DNA from: Candidatus Hydrogenedentales bacterium | GTDB taxonomy: Bacteria > Hydrogenedentota > Hydrogenedentia > Hydrogenedentales > GCA-2746185 | Assembly: GCA_038916785.1 (NCBI GenBank) | Contig: JBCLBO010000002.1 | Location: 21,085 to 85,084, forward strand | Direction of reading: 5' to 3' | DNA: 64,000 bases | Translations under genes and position numbers: made by a program | Notes under the pieces: model-generated | What the model was told of the DNA's origin: nothing | Database searches by the model: none | The model's input: only the letters and a program-made list of their open reading frames with translations | Shown: positions 5,436-24,888 of the stretch, piece after piece | How positions within the stretch are numbered: the stretch's first letter is position 1 | Layout: each line of letters opens with the position of its first letter

Positions 5436-5838
5436 CGGTCAATCGCCTCGATCCGCGCAAAACAGGGGCACGGTAGCCGTTTAACCATTCCGGTTCAACT
5501 CCCCTGGTGAAGCGCATTTCACATCAGGTAACAAAGAAAAACAACGAATCGATTGAACAGTCATTGTGAGTTCCGTCCTTTGGCGGCATCGGCGTCCAGC
5601 CGATGGAGAATGCGCCGGAATCTTCGCTTCCCGCCGAATACTGGTCCTCGTATCTAAAAGCATCTTAACCTAACCCAATACTCGTAGCATGGGCGGCCCG
5701 CCCATGCGGGTTCATGGCAGCCGGAGTCGGGTATCGTTAGAAGCTCTAAGAGCGAAGGCCCGCCCCGCATGGGCCGGAAGTCCATGCTACCAAGACCCCG
5801 CGCCTCATTCCCTCCGCGTGGGCCGGGCTTAATTCTCT

Positions 5839-6636
5839 TCACAGCGGAGCGGTCTCATCCGAAGGCCCAATCGGCGCAGGCGGATTCTCCGCCTCCAGCG
5901 GCTCCACCGCGCTCGGCTCGGGAACACGGAACAGAAACACGCGGGTGTCCAGCGTCGTGTAGCCGCTCATCGCCCCCCAGTGCACGCCGTAGATCCCGGG
6001 CTCCAGAGGCCGCCCGACTTGCAGCCGCAGCAGTTGGCCATCGGGAATATCCACCGGCTCGAGCGCCGCGGCCATCGTCCCCGCTTCCACCCACACCGTC
6101 ACGGGCGTCGACTCGCCCCCGCTTTGCGCCTCCGCCGGCACGAGCCGCGAGAGCCGCGCGTTATAGCGCGTCGTGCGATACGCGACGATGAAGGGCTCGC
6201 TCGCCGCGTCGTGCATCTCCTCCGGCAGCGCCGCGCCAAAGGCCTGCGTACCGTCCTTGAGATCGTATTCCTTCGGGACCACCCGCGTGGCCGTCGTGAA
6301 ACGCAAATCCGTGACGATATAGATGCCCGGATTGAGCGGCATCGGCCACAACGCCGCGTCCGCCTGCGCACGCGTGGAGTCATCCACCATCAGCTCGGCC
6401 GTGCCGTACCCCGTCTTCGAAAATGCGAGCCGCACAGCCCCGCGGGGCGCCGACACCCGATAGCGCCCGAGCCCGTCCGTGAGATCGGACGAAGTGGAAT
6501 CTACCGCACGAACGATCACGCCCGGCAGCGCCTCGCCGCGCACATCGGTGACCCGCCCCTGAATATACGACCGCTCGCAGGCGGGCAGAAATACCGCCGC
6601 CCCAATCAGCATCAGGACCGCGCGCAGACTCTTCAC
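5839..6636 (-). CDS. Lipoprotein with carboxypeptidase-regulatory-like N-terminal domain
   Basis: Signal peptide with lipobox (MKSLRAVLMLIGAAVFLPAC). IQGRVTDVRGEALPGVIVRAV...GRYRV resembles the CarboxypepD_reg fold. Its ATG overlaps the stop of the upstream gene by 4 nt. Confidence 0.6.
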   Translation of the reverse strand: MKSLRAVLMLIGAAVFLPACERSYIQGRVTDVRGEALPGVIVRAVDSTSSDLTDGLGRYRVSAPRGAVRLAFSKTGYGTAELMVDDSTRAQADAALWPMPLNPGIYIVTDLRFTTATRVVPKEYDLKDGTQAFGAALPEEMHDAASEPFIVAYRTTRYNARLSRLVPAEAQSGGESTPVTVWVEAGTMAAALEPVDIPDGQLLRLQVGRPLEPGIYGVHWGAMSGYTTLDTRVFLFRVPEPSAVEPLEAENPPAPIGPSDETAPL

Positions 6637-9017: not shown

Positions 9018-9252
9018 AGTCTACCAAACCCGCCAACGCGCCCAGCGGGGAAGGTCGCGGGCCCGGCGGGGAGGGTCGCGCTCCCGCGCGACCGGTACCT
9101 GTCGCAGCCTGCGGTCGCGCTCCAGCGGACCCTCCCCGCACGCTACAAACCGTCTCTGCATTTGTTAGAATATGCTCACAGTTGTCACATCACCCGGCAA
9201 CATTCGACCGATCAGCTCACGGATTTCGATACCGAATTTAAGGGACCTCTCA

Positions 9253-10866
9253 ATGCTCAAACGCATCTGCGCATTCGTGTTCATCTCCCTCATCGCTGGC
9301 CCCGCGCTCTGGGCGGACAAACCCGCCTTGGTCGTCTTCATTTCGGTCGATCAATTACGCGGCGATCTCCCCTTGCAGTTTCTGGATCGCTTCGGGCCGG
9401 ACGGATTCCGCCGCTTCTACGACCACGGCACGGCCTACACCAACGCGCACTACGGACACGTCACCACCTACACCGGCTGCGGCCACGCCACGCTCTCCAC
9501 CGGAGGCAATCCGCGCGAGCACGGCATCATCGGCAATGAATGGTTCGACCGGAAAACCGGCAAACAGGTCTATTGCGTGGCCGACGACGACCACAAGCTG
9601 TTGGGCGTCTCGAGCCCCTCGGGAGGCGCCTCGCCAAAGTTCCTCCTCGCGCCCACCCTCGGCGACGCGCTCATCGCGGCCTCGGGCGGACGATCCCGCG
9701 CCTTCAGCGTCTCCGGCAAGGACCGCGCCGGCGTGCTCATGGGCGGCCACAAAGGCAAGGCCTTCTGGTACTACGCCGGCACAGGCACCTTCGTGACCAG
9801 CAGCTACTACTACGACGCCTACCCGCCGTGGGTCGATTCATTCAACGGCGCTGGCCCCGGCGATCGATACGCCGGCAAAGTCTGGGACCTCGTCCGGCCG
9901 GAGAGCGAATACGTCAATCCCGACCTGCGCAAGATCGAATTGCCGAACCCGATCATCGGCGGCGTCTTCCCGCATTCGCTCGCCGGACTCGATCCGAAGA
10001 CGCTCTACGCGACGCTCTCCGTGACACCATTCTCCGACGAGCTCGTGATCGATTTCAGCAAGGCCCTGATCGAAAACGAACAACTGGGTCAGCGCGCCGA
10101 CACAGACTTGCTCATGGTCGGCCTTTCCGCGACGGACATCATCGGCCATCAATTCGGCCCGGAAAGCCGCGAGCAGGAAGACAATTTAATGCGTCTCGAT
10201 GCGCTCCTGGCGAACTTCTTCGCGTTCCTCGACCAGCGATTGGGCAAGGACAAGGTCCTGCTCGCGCTCAGCGCCGATCACGGCGTGGACGGAAATCCCG
10301 GCGGCAATCCCTCCGGCCAGCTCGACCTCACCGGCATGGTCAACACCGTCGAAGCCGCGCTCAAAGAAAAATTCGGCGACCAGGACAAATACGTGCTGGG
10401 CTACAAGGAGCCGTGTCTCTATTTCACGCCGGACGTGACCGAGCGCCGTGCGGGCGAACTCGACGCCATGGAAGACGCCGCCGCCGAAACCCTGCGCAAC
10501 ATGGAGGGCGTGGCGTACGCGATCCCTGCCCACCTCGTGAAAGAGGGCAAACTCGACCCCTCCGATCCGATCATGGAGATGATCAAGCGCTCCTACCGCG
10601 AAGAACTCTCCGGCGATGTCTTCGTGATTCAAAAACAGTACTACCGGGTATTCTCAGAAAAACTCCGCTACACCGCCACCCACGGCTCGCCCTATCCCTA
10701 CGACACCTTCGTGCCAGTCCTCTTCGCCGGTCCCGGCATCGCTGCGCAGCGGCTGGATCGCGCCGTCGGCCCCGAAAGCATCGCCGCCACCCTGGCCGCC
10801 CTCATCGGAATTCCCGCGCCCACCGGCGCGACCGGCCCGGTCTTGAAGGAAGTGGCCGGCAAATAA
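9253..10866 (+). CDS. Alkaline-phosphatase-superfamily enzyme (nucleotide pyrophosphatase/phosphodiesterase-like)
   Basis: Start chosen at MLKRICAFVFISLIAGPALWA (signal peptide). Metal-ligand motifs present: VDQLRGD, GHATLSTGG, TDIIGHQFG, LSADHG. Confidence 0.8.
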   Translation: MLKRICAFVFISLIAGPALWADKPALVVFISVDQLRGDLPLQFLDRFGPDGFRRFYDHGTAYTNAHYGHVTTYTGCGHATLSTGGNPREHGIIGNEWFDRKTGKQVYCVADDDHKLLGVSSPSGGASPKFLLAPTLGDALIAASGGRSRAFSVSGKDRAGVLMGGHKGKAFWYYAGTGTFVTSSYYYDAYPPWVDSFNGAGPGDRYAGKVWDLVRPESEYVNPDLRKIELPNPIIGGVFPHSLAGLDPKTLYATLSVTPFSDELVIDFSKALIENEQLGQRADTDLLMVGLSATDIIGHQFGPESREQEDNLMRLDALLANFFAFLDQRLGKDKVLLALSADHGVDGNPGGNPSGQLDLTGMVNTVEAALKEKFGDQDKYVLGYKEPCLYFTPDVTERRAGELDAMEDAAAETLRNMEGVAYAIPAHLVKEGKLDPSDPIMEMIKRSYREELSGDVFVIQKQYYRVFSEKLRYTATHGSPYPYDTFVPVLFAGPGIAAQRLDRAVGPESIAATLAALIGIPAPTGATGPVLKEVAGK

Positions 10867-10870
10867 GACC

Positions 10871-11096
10871 TATGGGAAGTATGGGAGGAATGGGAGGAAT
10901 GGGAACTATGGGACGGGGGAGCTGTTGAGAAAGCCGAATTTACAAGTTTGTCACGTTCGCTCGACCGTTGAGAAGTCTGTTTTCGTTGGTGTTTTCATCA
11001 AGCGAGTTCGTCATGTAGGTGCCATTTGGATGGAGAACTGGGCTTTTTTCAACAGCTCCACGGGATCCCATTTCTCCCATTACTCCCATACTTCCT
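10871..11096. repeat. Nested intergenic palindrome with 9-nt-periodic arms (ATGGGAGGA type)
   Basis: The left arm (10871-10913) is TATGGGAAG TATGGGAGG AATGGGAGG AATGGGAAC TATGGGAC. The right arm (11066-11096) is its near-complement. An inner arm pair lies at 10919-10935 and 11041-11059 (GAGCTGTTGAGAAAGCC / GGCTTTTTTCAACAGCTC). The core is AT-richer. It sits between convergent genes. Confidence 0.75.
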
Positions 11097-11107
11097 ATCA
11101 ATCTCCT

Positions 11108-11150
11108 CTTCGTTTCCTTCGTTGTCTTCTGTAAAAGCCCCTGTCCCTAC
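11108..11150. repeat. Solitary arm of the GAAACGAAG-type repeat
   Basis: CTTCGTTTCCTTCGTTGTCTTCTGTAAAAGCCCCTGTCC closely parallels 14242-14285 (CCCTTCGTTGCCTTCTGTAAGTCGCCCTGTCC). Confidence 0.6.
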
Positions 11151-12781
11151 TTCACCGTCTTGGCCGCGTAGCCGGAAAACCGCTCGCGCAGTTCCGTCTT
11201 CTTGAACTTGCCCACGCTCGTCTTCGGCACTTCGTCAATAAACACCACGCCGTCCGGGATCCACCACTTCGCCACTTTATCGGACAGGTACTTCTTGATG
11301 TCCTCTTCGCTGCACGTGTGCCCCTTCTTCAGCACCACGCACGCCAGCGGGCGCTCGTCCCACTTCGGGTGCGGAATCGCGATCACCGCCGCCTCCGCCA
11401 CCGCCGGGTGACCCATGATCGCGTTCTCGAGGTCCACCGAACTGATCCACTCGCCGCCGGACTTCACGAGGTCCTTCGCGCGGTCCTGAATCTTGATGTA
11501 GCCGATCTCGTCAATGCTCACAATGTCGCCCGTCTTGAACCAGCCGTCGTCCGTGAATCGGTCGGTCGCATCCGGCCGGTTGTAGTACGCGCTCGAAACC
11601 CACGGCCCGCGCACTTCGAGTTCGCCCATCGTCTTGCCGTCCCAAGGGATGATCCCCGCGTCCGACCGGCCGCGAATCTCCACCAGCGGCACGGGCGTGC
11701 CCTGCATCGCGCGATACTCGTACTGCAACTCCCCGCTCTTCGTGCGCAGTTCGCTGTTCAAGTTCGACACCGTCCCCATCGGCGAGAGTTCCGTCATGCC
11801 CCAGGCCTGGATAATCGTCAGTCCGTGGCGCTCCTGCATGTTCTTCATCAGGCTCACCGGCACCGCCGACCCGCCGACGATCATCGTCCGCAATTTCTTC
11901 AGGTTATACTTGCCGGGATCTGCATCCAGCGCCGCCAGCAACCCTTGCCAAATGGTCGGTACGCCGGCCGTAATCGTCACGTTCTCTTTCTCGAAGTCCT
12001 CCAACAAACTCGCCACGTCGAGGAATGGGCCCGGAAACACAATCTTCGGCCCCGCCATTGCCGCGGCGTAGGGCAGGCCCCACGCGTTCGCGTGGAACAT
12101 CGGCACCACCGGCAGCAGACAGTCCGCCTCGCGCAAATCGTGCACGTCGGACATCATCGCCGCCAGCGAATGCAGCACCATCGATCGGTGCGAATACAGC
12201 ACACCCTTGGGCCGCCCCGTCGTGCCGGAGGTGTAGCACATCGCCGCGGCCTGCCTCTCGCGCAACTTCAGCGTGGAGTAGTCGAACTTTTTCTCGTCCT
12301 CCGCGGCGAGCAACTGCTCGTAATCCAGCATCCCCTTCGGCAGCTCCGAGCCGCTCGACCGGATCATGATGTAATGCTGCGCCTTGATCTTCTCTTTGAA
12401 TTGCTTGAGCAGCGGCAGCAACGATTCATCGAAAATGATCGCGCGGTCGCTCCCGTCGTTCGCGATGTACTCCAGATCGTCCGGATGCAGACGAAGGTTC
12501 AGCGTGTGCAAAATGCTGCCGATGATCGGAATCGCAAAGTACGCCTCGAAGTGTTGGTAGTGGTTCCAGCACAGCGTCCCCACCGCCTCGTCCGGCTTGA
12601 TGCCCAAGCGCCGCAGCGCCAGCGCCAGCTTCTTCGTCCGCTTCACCATGTCCCCATAGGTGTACCGGTGAAACGACTTGTCCGGCAGCCGCGTGACGAT
12701 CTCCTTCTTGTAAAAATGCTGCTCCGCCCGCCGCAACACCGCGTCCAGCGTCAACTCGAAATCCATCATCAAGCCGTCCAT
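11147..12781 (-). CDS. AMP-dependent acyl-CoA synthetase (fatty-acid--CoA ligase family)
   Basis: AMP-binding motif MCYTSGTTGRPKG, later GWFKTGD, and the ...VGKFKK C-terminal lysine region. 544 aa. Confidence 0.85.
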   Translation of the reverse strand: MDGLMMDFELTLDAVLRRAEQHFYKKEIVTRLPDKSFHRYTYGDMVKRTKKLALALRRLGIKPDEAVGTLCWNHYQHFEAYFAIPIIGSILHTLNLRLHPDDLEYIANDGSDRAIIFDESLLPLLKQFKEKIKAQHYIMIRSSGSELPKGMLDYEQLLAAEDEKKFDYSTLKLRERQAAAMCYTSGTTGRPKGVLYSHRSMVLHSLAAMMSDVHDLREADCLLPVVPMFHANAWGLPYAAAMAGPKIVFPGPFLDVASLLEDFEKENVTITAGVPTIWQGLLAALDADPGKYNLKKLRTMIVGGSAVPVSLMKNMQERHGLTIIQAWGMTELSPMGTVSNLNSELRTKSGELQYEYRAMQGTPVPLVEIRGRSDAGIIPWDGKTMGELEVRGPWVSSAYYNRPDATDRFTDDGWFKTGDIVSIDEIGYIKIQDRAKDLVKSGGEWISSVDLENAIMGHPAVAEAAVIAIPHPKWDERPLACVVLKKGHTCSEEDIKKYLSDKVAKWWIPDGVVFIDEVPKTSVGKFKKTELRERFSGYAAKTVK

Positions 12782-14116: not shown

Positions 14117-14268
14117 CAGAAGGAAACGAAGAGAACGAAGAACTGATTCATTGCGATTGCTTGGCGGTAGGGCAAAAAAATGCCAAGTAGAATTGATCTA
14201 TCAGTGTTTTGTCTCAATCGAACCGCGCGTGGAATTAAGCGGTTCTTTGTTCCCTTCGTTGCCTTCTG
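14117..14268. repeat. Nested intergenic palindrome with 9-nt-periodic arms (GAAACGAAG type)
   Basis: The left arm CAGAAGGAAACGAAGAGAACGAAGAAC (14117-14143) and the right arm GTTCTTTGTTCCCTTCGTTGCCTTCTG (14242-14268) flank an AT-rich core of about 100 bp. Confidence 0.7.
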
Positions 14269-14364
14269 TAAGTCGCCCTGTCCGCGTTGCGCCGCGCCCC
14301 GCTGTACGATAGGCTACTTGTTTCCGGGGCAACAGCCCTCAAATCCATTGGGAGGATAGGTTCC

Positions 14365-19148: not shown

Positions 19149-20419
19149 CGCTGTACGAAGACTTGGCGTGGCGCGGGCTGATTAGCCAGGCGACGCATCC
19201 GGAGTTGGGCGGGCTGCTCGAGAAGGAGCGGTTTACCGTCTACGCGGGGTTTGATCCGACGGCGGATAGTCTGCATATCGGCTCGTTGATTCCGCTGCTG
19301 GGGCTGGCGCGGTTCCAACGCGCGGGGCACACGCCGATCGCGCTGATCGGCGGCGCGACGGGGATGATCGGCGACCCGAGCGGGAAGTCCGAGGAGCGCC
19401 AACTCCAGACGCGCGAGATGGTCGAGCGCAATGTCGCGGGAGTCGAGGCGCAGTTGCGCAAGTTCCTCGACTTCAAAGGGGCGACCGCGGCGATCGTGAC
19501 GAACAACCTCGACTGGCTCGGGCAGCTCCGGCTGGTCACTTTCCTGCGCGACATCGGCAAGCACTTTTCGGTGAACGCGATGATGGCGCGCGAGTCGGTC
19601 CGCGCGCGGCTTGAGGATCGGGAGCACGGGATCAGCTACACGGAATTCTCGTACCAGCTCTTGCAGGCCTACGATTTCTTGCAGCTCTACGACGAGCACA
19701 AGTGCCGGCTGCAAATCGGCGGTAGCGATCAGTGGGGCAATATCGTCGCGGGGATGGACCTCACGCGGCGGCTGCGGCCCGGCGTGGAGACCTACGGGCT
19801 GACGTTCCCGTTGGTGATGAAGGCGGACGGCGGAAAATTCGGCAAGTCGGAGAGCGGAAACGTCTGGCTCGATCCGACGAAGACTTCGCCGTACAAGTTC
19901 TACCAGTTTTGGATTAATACCGCCGATGCGGACGCGGTGAAGTTTCTGAAATATTTCACGTTTCTTCCGCACGAGGAGATTGACACGCTCGGCGAGGCCG
20001 TGACGTCGGCGCCGCAGGAACGCGCCGCGCAGAAGGCGTTGGCTACCGAGATGACGAAGCTGGTGCACGGCGAGGCGGCGCTGGCGGACGCGATCAAGGC
20101 GAGCGCCGCGATGTTCGGCGGGTCGTTAGAGGGACTGAGCGATGCGACGTTGGAAGACATCTTCACGGGCATGCCGAGCGCGGAGCTGCCGCGCGCGGCG
20201 CTGTCGGCGGGGCGGGCGTTGATCGACGTGCTGGTTGAGTCGGGAGTGTTCAAGAGCAAGGGCGAGGCGAAGCGGCTGGTGCAAAACGGCGGGTTGTATG
20301 TGAACAACGCGCGCGTGGACGCCGAGGACGCCAAACTTACGAACCAGTGCCTGACGACCGAGCGGATCGCCGTGGTGCGCACGGGGAAGAAGAACTACCA
20401 CCTGCTGAAGTTCGTCTGA
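19145..20419 (+). CDS. tyrS: Tyrosine--tRNA ligase
   Basis: HIGH-type motif (DSLHIGSLIP), KMSKS-type motif (KFGKS) and a C-terminal S4-like domain (RLVQNGGLYVNN). Confidence 0.95.
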   Translation: MTLYEDLAWRGLISQATHPELGGLLEKERFTVYAGFDPTADSLHIGSLIPLLGLARFQRAGHTPIALIGGATGMIGDPSGKSEERQLQTREMVERNVAGVEAQLRKFLDFKGATAAIVTNNLDWLGQLRLVTFLRDIGKHFSVNAMMARESVRARLEDREHGISYTEFSYQLLQAYDFLQLYDEHKCRLQIGGSDQWGNIVAGMDLTRRLRPGVETYGLTFPLVMKADGGKFGKSESGNVWLDPTKTSPYKFYQFWINTADADAVKFLKYFTFLPHEEIDTLGEAVTSAPQERAAQKALATEMTKLVHGEAALADAIKASAAMFGGSLEGLSDATLEDIFTGMPSAELPRAALSAGRALIDVLVESGVFKSKGEAKRLVQNGGLYVNNARVDAEDAKLTNQCLTTERIAVVRTGKKNYHLLKFV

Positions 20420-23523: not shown

Positions 23524-24888
23524 TCAGCGGTTTGCCGGGGCCGGGTCGAGGTGTGGTCTGAGCAGGGGCAGGAGCAGATCGGCGAAGAGGCGGTTGCCCT
23601 CTGGCGTGAGATGGCCGTCGTAATCGTAGAAGGCCTTCATAGCTTTGGAACCCGTACGGAACGCCGCCGTCACTTGCAGCATGGGGACACCCGCGCGATC
23701 ACTCGCACGCTGGTGGGCCTCGTCGGGCACCGTTGTGGCGAAATTGGCGTCCCGTATCCGGAGCTGTTGCTCGGTATTTATCGATTCAAAGAGTTTCTGC
23801 CAGCCGGAGATCCCGACATAGGAGCATTCGGGTATGGACACGGTCACCACGCGTGCCCCGTGGGCCTCGGCCACTTTCCGGATGTGTTCCAACTGCCGCG
23901 CGCACAATTCGATGCGGCGCCGCATGAGAACTGAGTCCACGTTCAGCTCCGGCGTGGTCTCCGGCGTGGGCGGGTCTTCGGCGACTACGGCTGCCCTGTC
24001 CGCCGGGGGCGGGGGCGTCGCCGTAGCGTGAGGCGCTTTCGGCGGACTCACCGGTCTCGGAAAAAGCCAAGTGAGTGAGGCGGGGTTTAGCTCACCCTCG
24101 ACGAAGGCGCGATGGATCGGCTCGGCCATTGCATGGAAGTTTTTCAGCCGGGTTTCATCCATGCTTGCAAGGTATTTCTGGGTTTTCTTCTTCCATTCGT
24201 CCTTAATCAAGGTCCGTTGGCCGACGAATTCCAGTCCGGGCCGGCGAGACAGCGAACGCAGTCCATCGGTTGAGAGTCGCGTGAGATTTGGAACCAAACG
24301 GTGCGCGAGGGATTTCGTGAATGCCGGTTTTTCGATCGGTACAGCGCGCGCGGGGGCGGGGTCGAGCCCAACTTCCTTAGGACGCCAATTTTTAACCTGC
24401 TCCAGATCGTTGCCTTGGAGCAGCCCCACCAAGACGAGGTCGGGCTTCAAGATGGGGATGACCTTCGCCGCCGTGTCCGCGTATTCGCCGGGTCCGTGCC
24501 CCGGAGAACCCAAGTTCAAGAGTTCGAGGTCGTGCCCTTCGGCGCGGAGCGCTTCTTCCAGCCGCTTGACCCAGGTGTCGGCCAGATCCACCCCCCAACC
24601 GTAGGTGTAGGAGTCGCCGAGCGCTAGAACGCGCAGTTTCCGGGTCTTCACACGTGTGGTGTCATCGCCCCGAAATCCGAGATTGTTCGCGTACACCGTA
24701 CACTTAAACTCGATCGTGTCGTAGTAGGCCGCGGAGTGCGGCGTGAACAAGAGGCCGGCCGGGAGCTCGTCCGCGGGACGAAAATGTCCGAGGGCGCGAT
24801 CGGCCACAAGCACAAGGGTGAATATGCCTGCGAGGGAACCGATCGCAAGCAGCACGTTGCCGATGAAGGTCTTCATCCGTGAAGTCAT
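23524..24888 (-). CDS. Membrane-anchored SGNH/GDSL-family hydrolase
   Basis: Start chosen at MTSRMKTFIGNVLLAIGSLAGIF (TM anchor). Block I is VLALGDSYTYGWG and block V is DGHLTPEG. Confidence 0.7.
   Translation of the reverse strand: MTSRMKTFIGNVLLAIGSLAGIFTLVLVADRALGHFRPADELPAGLLFTPHSAAYYDTIEFKCTVYANNLGFRGDDTTRVKTRKLRVLALGDSYTYGWGVDLADTWVKRLEEALRAEGHDLELLNLGSPGHGPGEYADTAAKVIPILKPDLVLVGLLQGNDLEQVKNWRPKEVGLDPAPARAVPIEKPAFTKSLAHRLVPNLTRLSTDGLRSLSRRPGLEFVGQRTLIKDEWKKKTQKYLASMDETRLKNFHAMAEPIHRAFVEGELNPASLTWLFPRPVSPPKAPHATATPPPPADRAAVVAEDPPTPETTPELNVDSVLMRRRIELCARQLEHIRKVAEAHGARVVTVSIPECSYVGISGWQKLFESINTEQQLRIRDANFATTVPDEAHQRASDRAGVPMLQVTAAFRTGSKAMKAFYDYDGHLTPEGNRLFADLLLPLLRPHLDPAPANR

Follow-up and report, generated by a model that had tools for sequence, protein, structure and literature searches.

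The locus and its outer hairpin

The window analysed here, a stretch of 64,000 nucleotides from a Candidatus Hydrogenedentales genome, harbors in one of its intergenic spacers a 230-bp palindromic repeat on which two protein-coding genes converge from both sides, one for a type I phosphodiesterase/nucleotide pyrophosphatase and the other for an AMP-binding enzyme of the acyl-CoA synthetase type (Table 1). The source assembly (designated G000; 3.4 Mb in 168 contigs, 63% G+C, 86% complete) holds the window as C2:21085-85084. Positions given without a prefix are window coordinates, and G-, C- and L-numbers denote genomes, contigs and extracted loci, respectively. The initial annotation had regarded the repeat as one nested architecture composed of outer arms made of tandem 9-nt units, an inner palindrome and an AT-rich core. 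The outer arms, termed R and Y, carry the hexamer ATGGGA and its complement; the inner part proves to be a miniature inverted-repeat transposable element (MITE) with terminal inverted repeats (TIRs) and a target-site duplication (TSD), related to an insertion sequence (IS).

Table 1. Features of the convergent spacer and its two flanking genes (window coordinates)
Feature	Position	Strand	Basis and remarks
Type I phosphodiesterase/nucleotide pyrophosphatase gene, upstream convergent	9172..10866	+	PF01663, E 3e-36; list of open reading frames (ORFs); stop codon TAA ends at 10866
Outer hairpin, R arm	10871..10913	+	Five tandem 9-nt units, invariant ATGGGA core plus 3-nt variable spacer; TRF period 9, 4.8 copies
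MITE target-site duplication, left copy	10913..10917		ACGGG, formerly in the apical loop of the hairpin; the 5 bp are repeated at 11060-11064
MITE derived from an IS1182-family element	10918..11059		142 bp, no ORF; TIRs, TSD, further copies, parent IS
MITE target-site duplication, right copy	11060..11064		ACGGG, same 5 bp as 10913-10917
Outer hairpin, Y arm	11066..11098	+	TCCCAT units, three perfect and one degenerate; complementary to 10872-10904
Solitary Y-type arm of another family	11103..11146	+	CTTCGTT nonamers, then tail CTTCTGTAA..CCCTGTCC; lies directly next to the AMP-binding gene's stop codon
AMP-binding enzyme gene, acyl-CoA synthetase type, downstream convergent	11147..12781	-	PF00501, E 5e-72; PF13193

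The R arm reads TATGGGAAG TATGGGAGG AATGGGAGG AATGGGAAC TATGGGA and the Y arm TCCCATTTC TCCCATTAC TCCCATACT TCCTAT, with only the MITE between them and 48 nt from the Y arm to the stop of the AMP-binding gene. The five tandem units and the complementarity of the arms, both part of the first description, hold up on closer analysis: in register, 33 nt are 91% complementary, as compared with 79% in the registers shifted by one unit, indicating that pairing extends to the spacers. The pairing also exceeds that of shuffled sequence, as had been anticipated. A 291-nt region around the repeat has a minimum free energy of -111.2 kcal/mol versus -83.8 +/- 5.1 kcal/mol for 200 shuffles (z -5.4), none of which was as stable, and its minus strand folds with a z of -4.9. 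The whole 230 bp folds into a single long stem, because of which the Rfam search, empty at the gathering score, returned meaningless sub-threshold matches to plant miRNA precursors (24 bits, with the gathering score at 245). On the purine-rich strand, the GGG recurring every 9 nt (10871-10920, and likewise in other ATGGGA arrays of at least four units) fits a G-quadruplex pattern (G3-N6 x4), one that is absent in the sister word families.

An IS1182-derived MITE in the apical loop

The inner palindrome and its AT-rich core are an independent, IS1182-derived MITE. It is bounded by 16-nt TIRs, GGAGCTGTTGAGAAAG at 10918-10933 and the complement at 11044-11059, and is flanked by the duplicated ACGGG. 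The inner arm pair of the initial annotation is therefore real (10918-10932 and 11045-11059, 15 nt, 93% complementary), but it does not belong to the outer element, being the ends of a MITE that has its own TSDs and resides at many arm-free sites. BLAST against G000 located 15 other matches to the core 10918-11059, which are 76-99% identical; the outer arms were not carried along, and ATGGGA arms are found at none of those sites. Exact 5-bp TSDs border seven of 17 copies (ACGGG here, AAGGC, GAAAT twice, ACAGC/GCTGT, ACCGC) and 4-bp TSDs two more, so that 4-5-bp duplications are present in 9/17; three copies lie in unrelated, non-palindromic DNA. A full-length parent with the same ends exists at G000:C19:2123-3709 (1587 bp), encoding an IS1182-family transposase (NF033551; DUF772 plus DDE_Tnp_1_6) that a frameshift has split into two ORFs. 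The right end of this IS abuts GCTGTCCC, and a target duplication is not visible there. Among 40 relatives searched, including four congeners, the MITE was found in none, which marks it as a recent invader of the G000 lineage.

The MITE has a discernible target preference. GGGAC(A/G)G is present in eight of about 12 resolvable targets, most of which belong to a repetitive extragenic palindrome (REP)-like family, GGGACAGCCACCTATTTAT, and the target at the hairpin, TATGGGAC|GGG, is consistent with this preference. Members of this favorite target family (GGGACAGCCACCTATTTAT ... ATAAATAGGTGGCTGTCCC) consist of 10-11-nt sub-repeats (TTAAAT-N-GGGAC); they surround most MITE copies (e.g., C97:10267-10500, C50:1404-1640) and also flank a gene for a 236-aa RAYT-like Y1_Tnp protein (RAYT, REP-associated tyrosine transposase) at G000:C30:28847-29554. 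Four MITE copies (C19:1741-1881, C44:464-604, C44:5769-5909 and C50:22529-22630) have no direct TSD and are bordered instead by an inverted pair, GGGACAGC / GCTGTCCC, perfect over 8 bp or nearly so; these flanks might stem from REP arms that were captured, or from a rearrangement after the insertion. Contig C44 (25,061 bp) is self-mirrored, a feature at x recurring reverse-complemented at 25062-x (464-604 as 24458-24598; 5769-5909 as 19153-19293). The mirror is probably a fold-back assembly artefact, in which case the MITE copies of this contig are counted twice.

What did the locus look like before the insertion? Joining the flanks with a single ACGGG yields an empty site that folds, at -58.5 kcal/mol (z -8.5), into a stem of about 40 bp closed by a short apical loop, similar to the intact ATGGGA hairpins on contigs C28 and C31. 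This tight, short-loop form of the empty site places the MITE in the former apical loop. It might be argued that outer arms, inner palindrome and AT-rich core nonetheless move or function as one integrated unit, considering that the entire 230 bp forms one long stem and that the nesting recurs visually, several MITE copies being flanked by inverted GGGACAGC / GCTGTCCC and then by periodic units. We regard this as extremely improbable. Elsewhere the core always occurs without ATGGGA arms, with TSDs and a parent IS of its own; ATGGGA hairpins at other sites lack the core; and the core is missing from all 40 relatives, whereas ATGGGA arrays are widespread in the order. Nor is the proposed single architecture supported: the hairpins on C28, C31 and C4 are tight and coreless, and the core of another arm pair in the window (14117-14285) is not the MITE. 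We consider it probable that the "nested palindrome" is a composite of two unrelated pieces of selfish DNA, namely an older gene-less, periodic-armed hairpin and a MITE that later inserted into its apical loop and duplicated ACGGG.

The ATGGGA repeat family

A census of 9-nt arms across the genome, suggested at the outset, did reveal further copies. ATGGGA arrays with three or more units number 17 in G000, both arms of the window hairpin included, and thus 15 elsewhere; 16 of the 17 lie between genes, by our own gene calls. They form hairpins at five sites (on C2, C28, C31, C4 and C69), the remainder being solitary. The copies have the hexamer and the 9-nt phase in common (unit logo A-T-G-G-G-A-[A/G/C]-[G/T]-N), and the spacers vary from copy to copy. 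A period of nine prevails among the intergenic tandem repeats of G000, with 96 arrays as compared with three of period 6 and nine of period 12, and several word families coexist: ATGGGA, CACGAAG, C(A/G)CAGAT, ACAGGAT, ACGGAT and ACGCGGAG. Wherever arms are paired, the word comes first and the complement second, in every family (ATGGGA, CACGAAG, CRCAGAT, ACAGGAT, ACGGAT, AACGAAG); the reverse order was not encountered once in the whole genome. Such fixed polarity points to a polar mechanism of origin. Of 121 genomes surveyed in the order, 50 contain four-unit ATGGGA arrays, with 1 to more than 100 matches each, and a reversed-pattern control gave zero arrays in all 121. The outer palindrome is most readily interpreted as a hairpin member of this phylum-wide family that lacks a gene, with the arm word AT[G/A]GG[A/T](C) every 9 nt.

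Comparison with congeners reveals turnover. At the orthologous site of G004, both convergent genes and the CTTCGTT arm are kept (the latter with two units versus three in G000), and in place of the ATGGGA hairpin and MITE there is only a hairpin with a 13-bp stem, CCTATAGGTC / GACCTACAGG (in full, GGGCCTATAGGTC-CGCTTC-GACCTACAGGCCC); the repeat is therefore absent from the orthologous spacer of a relative, a check that the first reading had suggested. The C31 and C28 hairpins are likewise missing from the orthologous spacers of congeners, and at the C4 site the arrays differ in length or form among G000, G002 and G003 and are lacking in G001 and G004. The ATGGGA elements are thus gained, lost and remodelled as quickly as species diverge within a genus.

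Two alternatives place the origin or function of the arrays in the host. The first is a bidirectional terminator or 3′-end hairpin that evolved locally, its arms lengthened by replication slippage, unrelated to any dispersed element or gene. The hairpin of different sequence at the G004 site would fit a useful stem at this position, and unit numbers do vary, both in the CTTCGTT arm (three versus two in G004) and in the C4 arrays. However, G000 repeats the same hexamer and 9-nt phase at 15 further sites, 50 of 121 genomes have it as well, the sites include divergent spacers and both strands, a T-tract terminator was not detected, and neither the fixed polarity nor the link to a gene family described below (TIGR04258) would be expected from local slippage; we hold this origin to be unlikely. 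The hint of a convergent terminator that accompanied the original description is not specific: ATGGGA arrays are found in convergent, divergent and tandem spacers, in either orientation relative to transcription, and scans of 10700-11300 on either strand gave no terminator-like site, nor any promoter.

The second alternative is a host regulatory array read by its sequence, whether by a DNA- or RNA-binding regulator (e.g., a GGA binder of the CsrA type) or as a G-quadruplex, given the GGG every 9 nt. Arrays of at least four units do match, on sequence grounds, the G3-N6 quadruplex pattern, many solitary arrays sit 10-60 nt from a start codon, and the heptamer direct repeats of Beggiatoaceae have been proposed as sites of a translational regulator (PMC4679880). 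Against it, the arrays are strand-neutral with respect to neighboring genes (in co-directional spacers, four sense and three antisense), and such indifference to strand and spacer type speaks against an RNA signal tied to one strand. Sister families are without GGG or GGA, the sites are not conserved among congeners, and the paired words would be buried in a stem. Such regulation appears quite improbable as the purpose of the arrays.

A four-helix-bundle gene family linked to the arrays

Are the arrays associated with a gene? A weak PF05635 match in G101 provided the first lead: an ORF between ATGGGA arrays, encoding a four-helix-bundle protein with the suffix domain TIGR04258 (75.7 bits, cut-off 40) together with TIGR02436. 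Of 133 genomes of the order, 83 have TIGR04258 genes. In the flanks of 20 of 31 TIGR04258 loci there are arrays with three or more [AG]T[AG]GG[AT] units, as compared with none of 29 control loci carrying PF13366 or PF01797 genes (Fisher 2e-8, a value that overstates the link, since related genomes are not independent). Clear cassettes are seen at L235, L226, L223, L221 and L237. In G028, the gene is preceded by about 20 ATGGGTCTT units and followed by 15 units of the complement, whereas other loci show one hairpin per side.

ATGGGA(A/G) arms accompany a protein sub-family with the conserved N-terminus [IL][IL]PPRGDY. In this sub-type the complementary arm (TCCCAT-NNN) directly meets the N-terminus in an invariant frame that reads Ser-His-x (L217 1213-1911(-), L244, L247, L238 and G000:C69:130-400(-)), and the hairpin arms may be translated. 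A canonical start codon is absent at the usual position of these genes, and in three cases there is an in-frame ATG upstream of the whole hairpin. The congener G003 has an intact gene of the sub-family (L244). The copy on G000:C69, which also has an ATGGGA hairpin, is a pseudogene of the TIGR04258 family with a stop and a frameshift, and is cut by the contig start. As G000 retains the arrays but only this decayed pseudogene, the copy in the window would be a non-autonomous relic, probably of the hairpin module of the four-helix-bundle cassettes. A search for the first codons of the gene behind gene-less Y arms yielded merely a vague C-rich similarity.

The G000 genome also offers a competing candidate. 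Its PF13366 (GxxExxY) loci are bracketed by periodic inverted arms in five or six of six cases (seven fragment hits), as is its single PF05635 gene, and the hairpin could by extension be the arm pair of a GxxExxY (PDDEXK_3, PF13366) nuclease cassette without its gene. The bracketing arms share the design and polarity of the ATGGGA hairpin, and the neighboring CTTCGTT arm belongs to such a family. ATGGGA-type arms, however, occur neither at the seven own PF13366 hits or the PF05635 gene of G000 nor at 13 PF13366 hits in relatives; G054 has 54 ATGGGA array matches but no PF13366 gene; no ATGGGA pair surrounds a nuclease-sized gene in 135 genomes; and it is TIGR04258 genes that ATGGGA-type arms accompany instead. 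Descent from a nuclease cassette is thus very improbable. In the same 135 genomes, the search for ATGGGA pairs 340-430 bp apart, a gap shorter than the cognate gene (~630 bp), returned one match with no ORF within it. A pair of ATGGGA/ATGAGA arrays 378 bp apart (L144 1480-1920, G054:C27) encloses no ORF but two further nested hairpins, one of which has periodic arms of the CACAAAGGA type. Each word family appears to go with a small gene of its own, nuclease genes for some words and helix-bundle genes for the ATGGGA type. In the full-text literature searched, no paper ties GxxExxY, PDDEXK_3, PF05635, TIGR02436 or TIGR04258 genes to periodic arms.

A proposed cassette and its dependants

As a tentative proposal, which we find plausible but less likely than not, the AT[G/A]GG[A/T]C arrays could serve as recognition or assembly sites of the four-helix-bundle suffix protein, a relative of Avd and of the proteins of rRNA intervening sequences (IVSs). 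Arrays and gene together would constitute hairpin-armed selfish cassettes of a kind not described before, IVS-like but outside rRNA, with the gene-less hairpins as dependants resembling REPINs (hairpin-forming REP doublets) and with the in-frame upstream hairpin controlling expression of the gene. Irrespective of this proposal, complete elements of the phylum have the small four-helix-bundle gene with its C-terminal suffix (TIGR04258 plus TIGR02436, PF05635 clan) bracketed by the arrays, which might lengthen and shorten by slippage. How would gene-less hairpins arise? They may derive from gene-bearing cassettes, e.g., by recombination between two same-sense arrays flanking the gene; alternatively, they may be made in trans by the helix-bundle protein. 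Growth by slippage from short seeds is a third candidate for the origin of copies.

Several observations weigh against reading the hairpin as a copy from such cassettes. The kinship among genomes that inflates the Fisher test has already been mentioned, and at the level of whole genomes the link is weak, a TIGR04258 gene being present in 37 of 50 array-positive versus 38 of 71 array-negative genomes by our own tally. The array-rich genomes G054, G005, G006, G004, G087 and G097 lack a TIGR04258 gene, implying that arrays persist, and perhaps multiply, without it. No intact gene was found in G000, an 86% complete assembly in which the TIGR04258 domain was not detected, and there is no gene-bearing copy at the window locus. 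Copies that share the hexamer alone do not resemble copy-and-paste elements and may instead have grown de novo from short seeds; the majority of ATGGGA arrays are solitary and unpaired; and at the hairpin itself a canonical intrinsic (T-tract, rho-independent) terminator was not detected.

At the locus, the stem, some 40 bp long prior to the MITE insertion, would form at the 3′ end of either convergent transcript, where it might act as a 3′-end stem or a barrier to decay rather than as a sequence-specific signal. Such a structural role for both transcripts would be the likeliest one at this site, and the different hairpin at the same position in G004 is compatible with it.

Relation to known systems

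Resolving the composite is a reminder for annotation that a striking "nested palindrome" can be a mere insertion event, and it provides a clean example of an IS1182-type MITE homing to repeat hairpins. The inner element resembles known pairs of MITEs and autonomous IS partners in having TIRs, a 4-5-bp TSD, no ORF, many copies and a full-length partner with identical ends. Several of its copies differ from known MITEs in their inverted GGGACAGC / GCTGTCCC flanks, which show no visible duplication. Insertion sequences that target REP hairpins include IS1397 and ISPpu9/10 (Tobes & Pareja, 2006, PMC1525189); the MITE likewise lands mostly in palindromic repeats, but the GGGAC(A/G)G target word and the insertion into a periodic-armed hairpin's loop are peculiar to G000.

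The outer hairpin invites comparison with the REP/REPIN-RAYT systems (PMC3116915, PMC3337134, PMC2817692, PMC3333891). Like these, the ATGGGA family comprises short intergenic hairpins in tens of copies, which far outnumber the low-copy cognate gene that they flank and are gained and lost among close relatives. In contrast, its arms repeat a 6-nt word every 9 nt, the spacers being free, and have neither a master palindrome nor a GTAG head; the linked gene encodes a four-helix-bundle protein without known catalytic activity rather than a Y1/HUH transposase; and the RAYT-like genes of G000 are flanked by other repeats. A direct link between RAYTs and the arrays was considered and rejected. There is no ATGGGA array, even of two units, within 1.5 kb of the 16 Y1_Tnp hits in array-rich relatives, the 260-nt flanks of the five strongest Y1_Tnp genes of G000 carry other repeats, and G054 and G066 are array-rich without a Y1_Tnp gene.

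With the IVSs of 23S rRNA that contain a PF05635 ("S23p") ORF, and with Avd of diversity-generating retroelements (PMC10053308), the cognate gene shares its clan (PF05635/TIGR02436). As in the IVSs, complete cassettes are enclosed by inverted repeats able to form a long stem. They differ in lying between protein genes and in having periodic arms, an additional TIGR04258 suffix domain and no reverse transcriptase, and the window copy differs further in being gene-less. That the repeat in the window might be a 23S rRNA IVS is ruled out by its location between two protein-coding genes.

The ATGGGA hairpin resembles the periodic-armed GxxExxY (PF13366) cassettes in arm design, word-then-complement polarity, intergenic habit and the existence of gene-less copies, and is set apart from them by its word family and by a cognate gene for a four-helix bundle with suffix. 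The short tandemly repeated repetitive (STRR) sequences of cyanobacteria are arrays of heptamer direct repeats. Comparable are the TAACTGA heptamer repeats of Beggiatoaceae, Cyanobacteria and Bacteroidetes (MacGregor, 2015, PMC4679880). The ATGGGA arrays have much in common with both, being lineage-wide intergenic arrays of a single word, variable in copy number and patchy in distribution, with no known mechanism of spread. Yet the heptamers follow one another without gaps as 7-nt direct repeats, are hardly ever inverted and in most cases closely precede start codons on the sense strand, whereas the ATGGGA units span 9 nt (6 fixed and 3 free), often form inverted pairs of fixed polarity and are strand-neutral.

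At the level of the family, the result is that the ATGGGA word type belongs to genes for a four-helix bundle with suffix and not to the nuclease genes of other word types in G000. Nine-base periodic arrays, common and unexplained, are thereby tied to the equally unexplained four-helix-bundle genes known from rRNA IVSs and Avd. Should the TIGR04258 protein indeed read the arrays, it would provide a direct handle on the puzzles of both the repeats and the gene family.

Neighboring and other repeat elements

The solitary arm of another family that had been noticed beside the palindrome (at about 11103-11146) is real: its CTTCGTT units and tail recur in the genome, as the right arm at 14242-14285 and as the right arm of a GxxExxY gene on G000:C37. 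The idea that elements stack at one site is likewise borne out, with the ATGGGA hairpin, the MITE within it and the solitary CTTCGTT arm beside it. The pair at 14117-14285, armed with AACGAAG/CTTCGTT, has the defined ends TTACAGAAG ... CTTCTGTAA and a 100-bp core unrelated to the MITE.

Two further Y1_Tnp genes of G000, at C4:28527-29210 and C82:802-1272, are accompanied by hairpin repeats of their own (AGGGGTCGGGATTCGTTTTTCCGGG... and GAGTCCCGTAGGGACGGCTGA / TCAGCCGTCCCTACGGGACTC), from which it follows that G000 contains several independent REP/RAYT- or IS200-like systems. In four relatives, stacked arrays of short period occupy single spacers (L115, L122, L125 and L130, from G011, G066, G034 and G028, respectively), with ATGACGA, ATGGGACGG, GGACGGATC, TTGACAG and CCGTCTCTG as their words.

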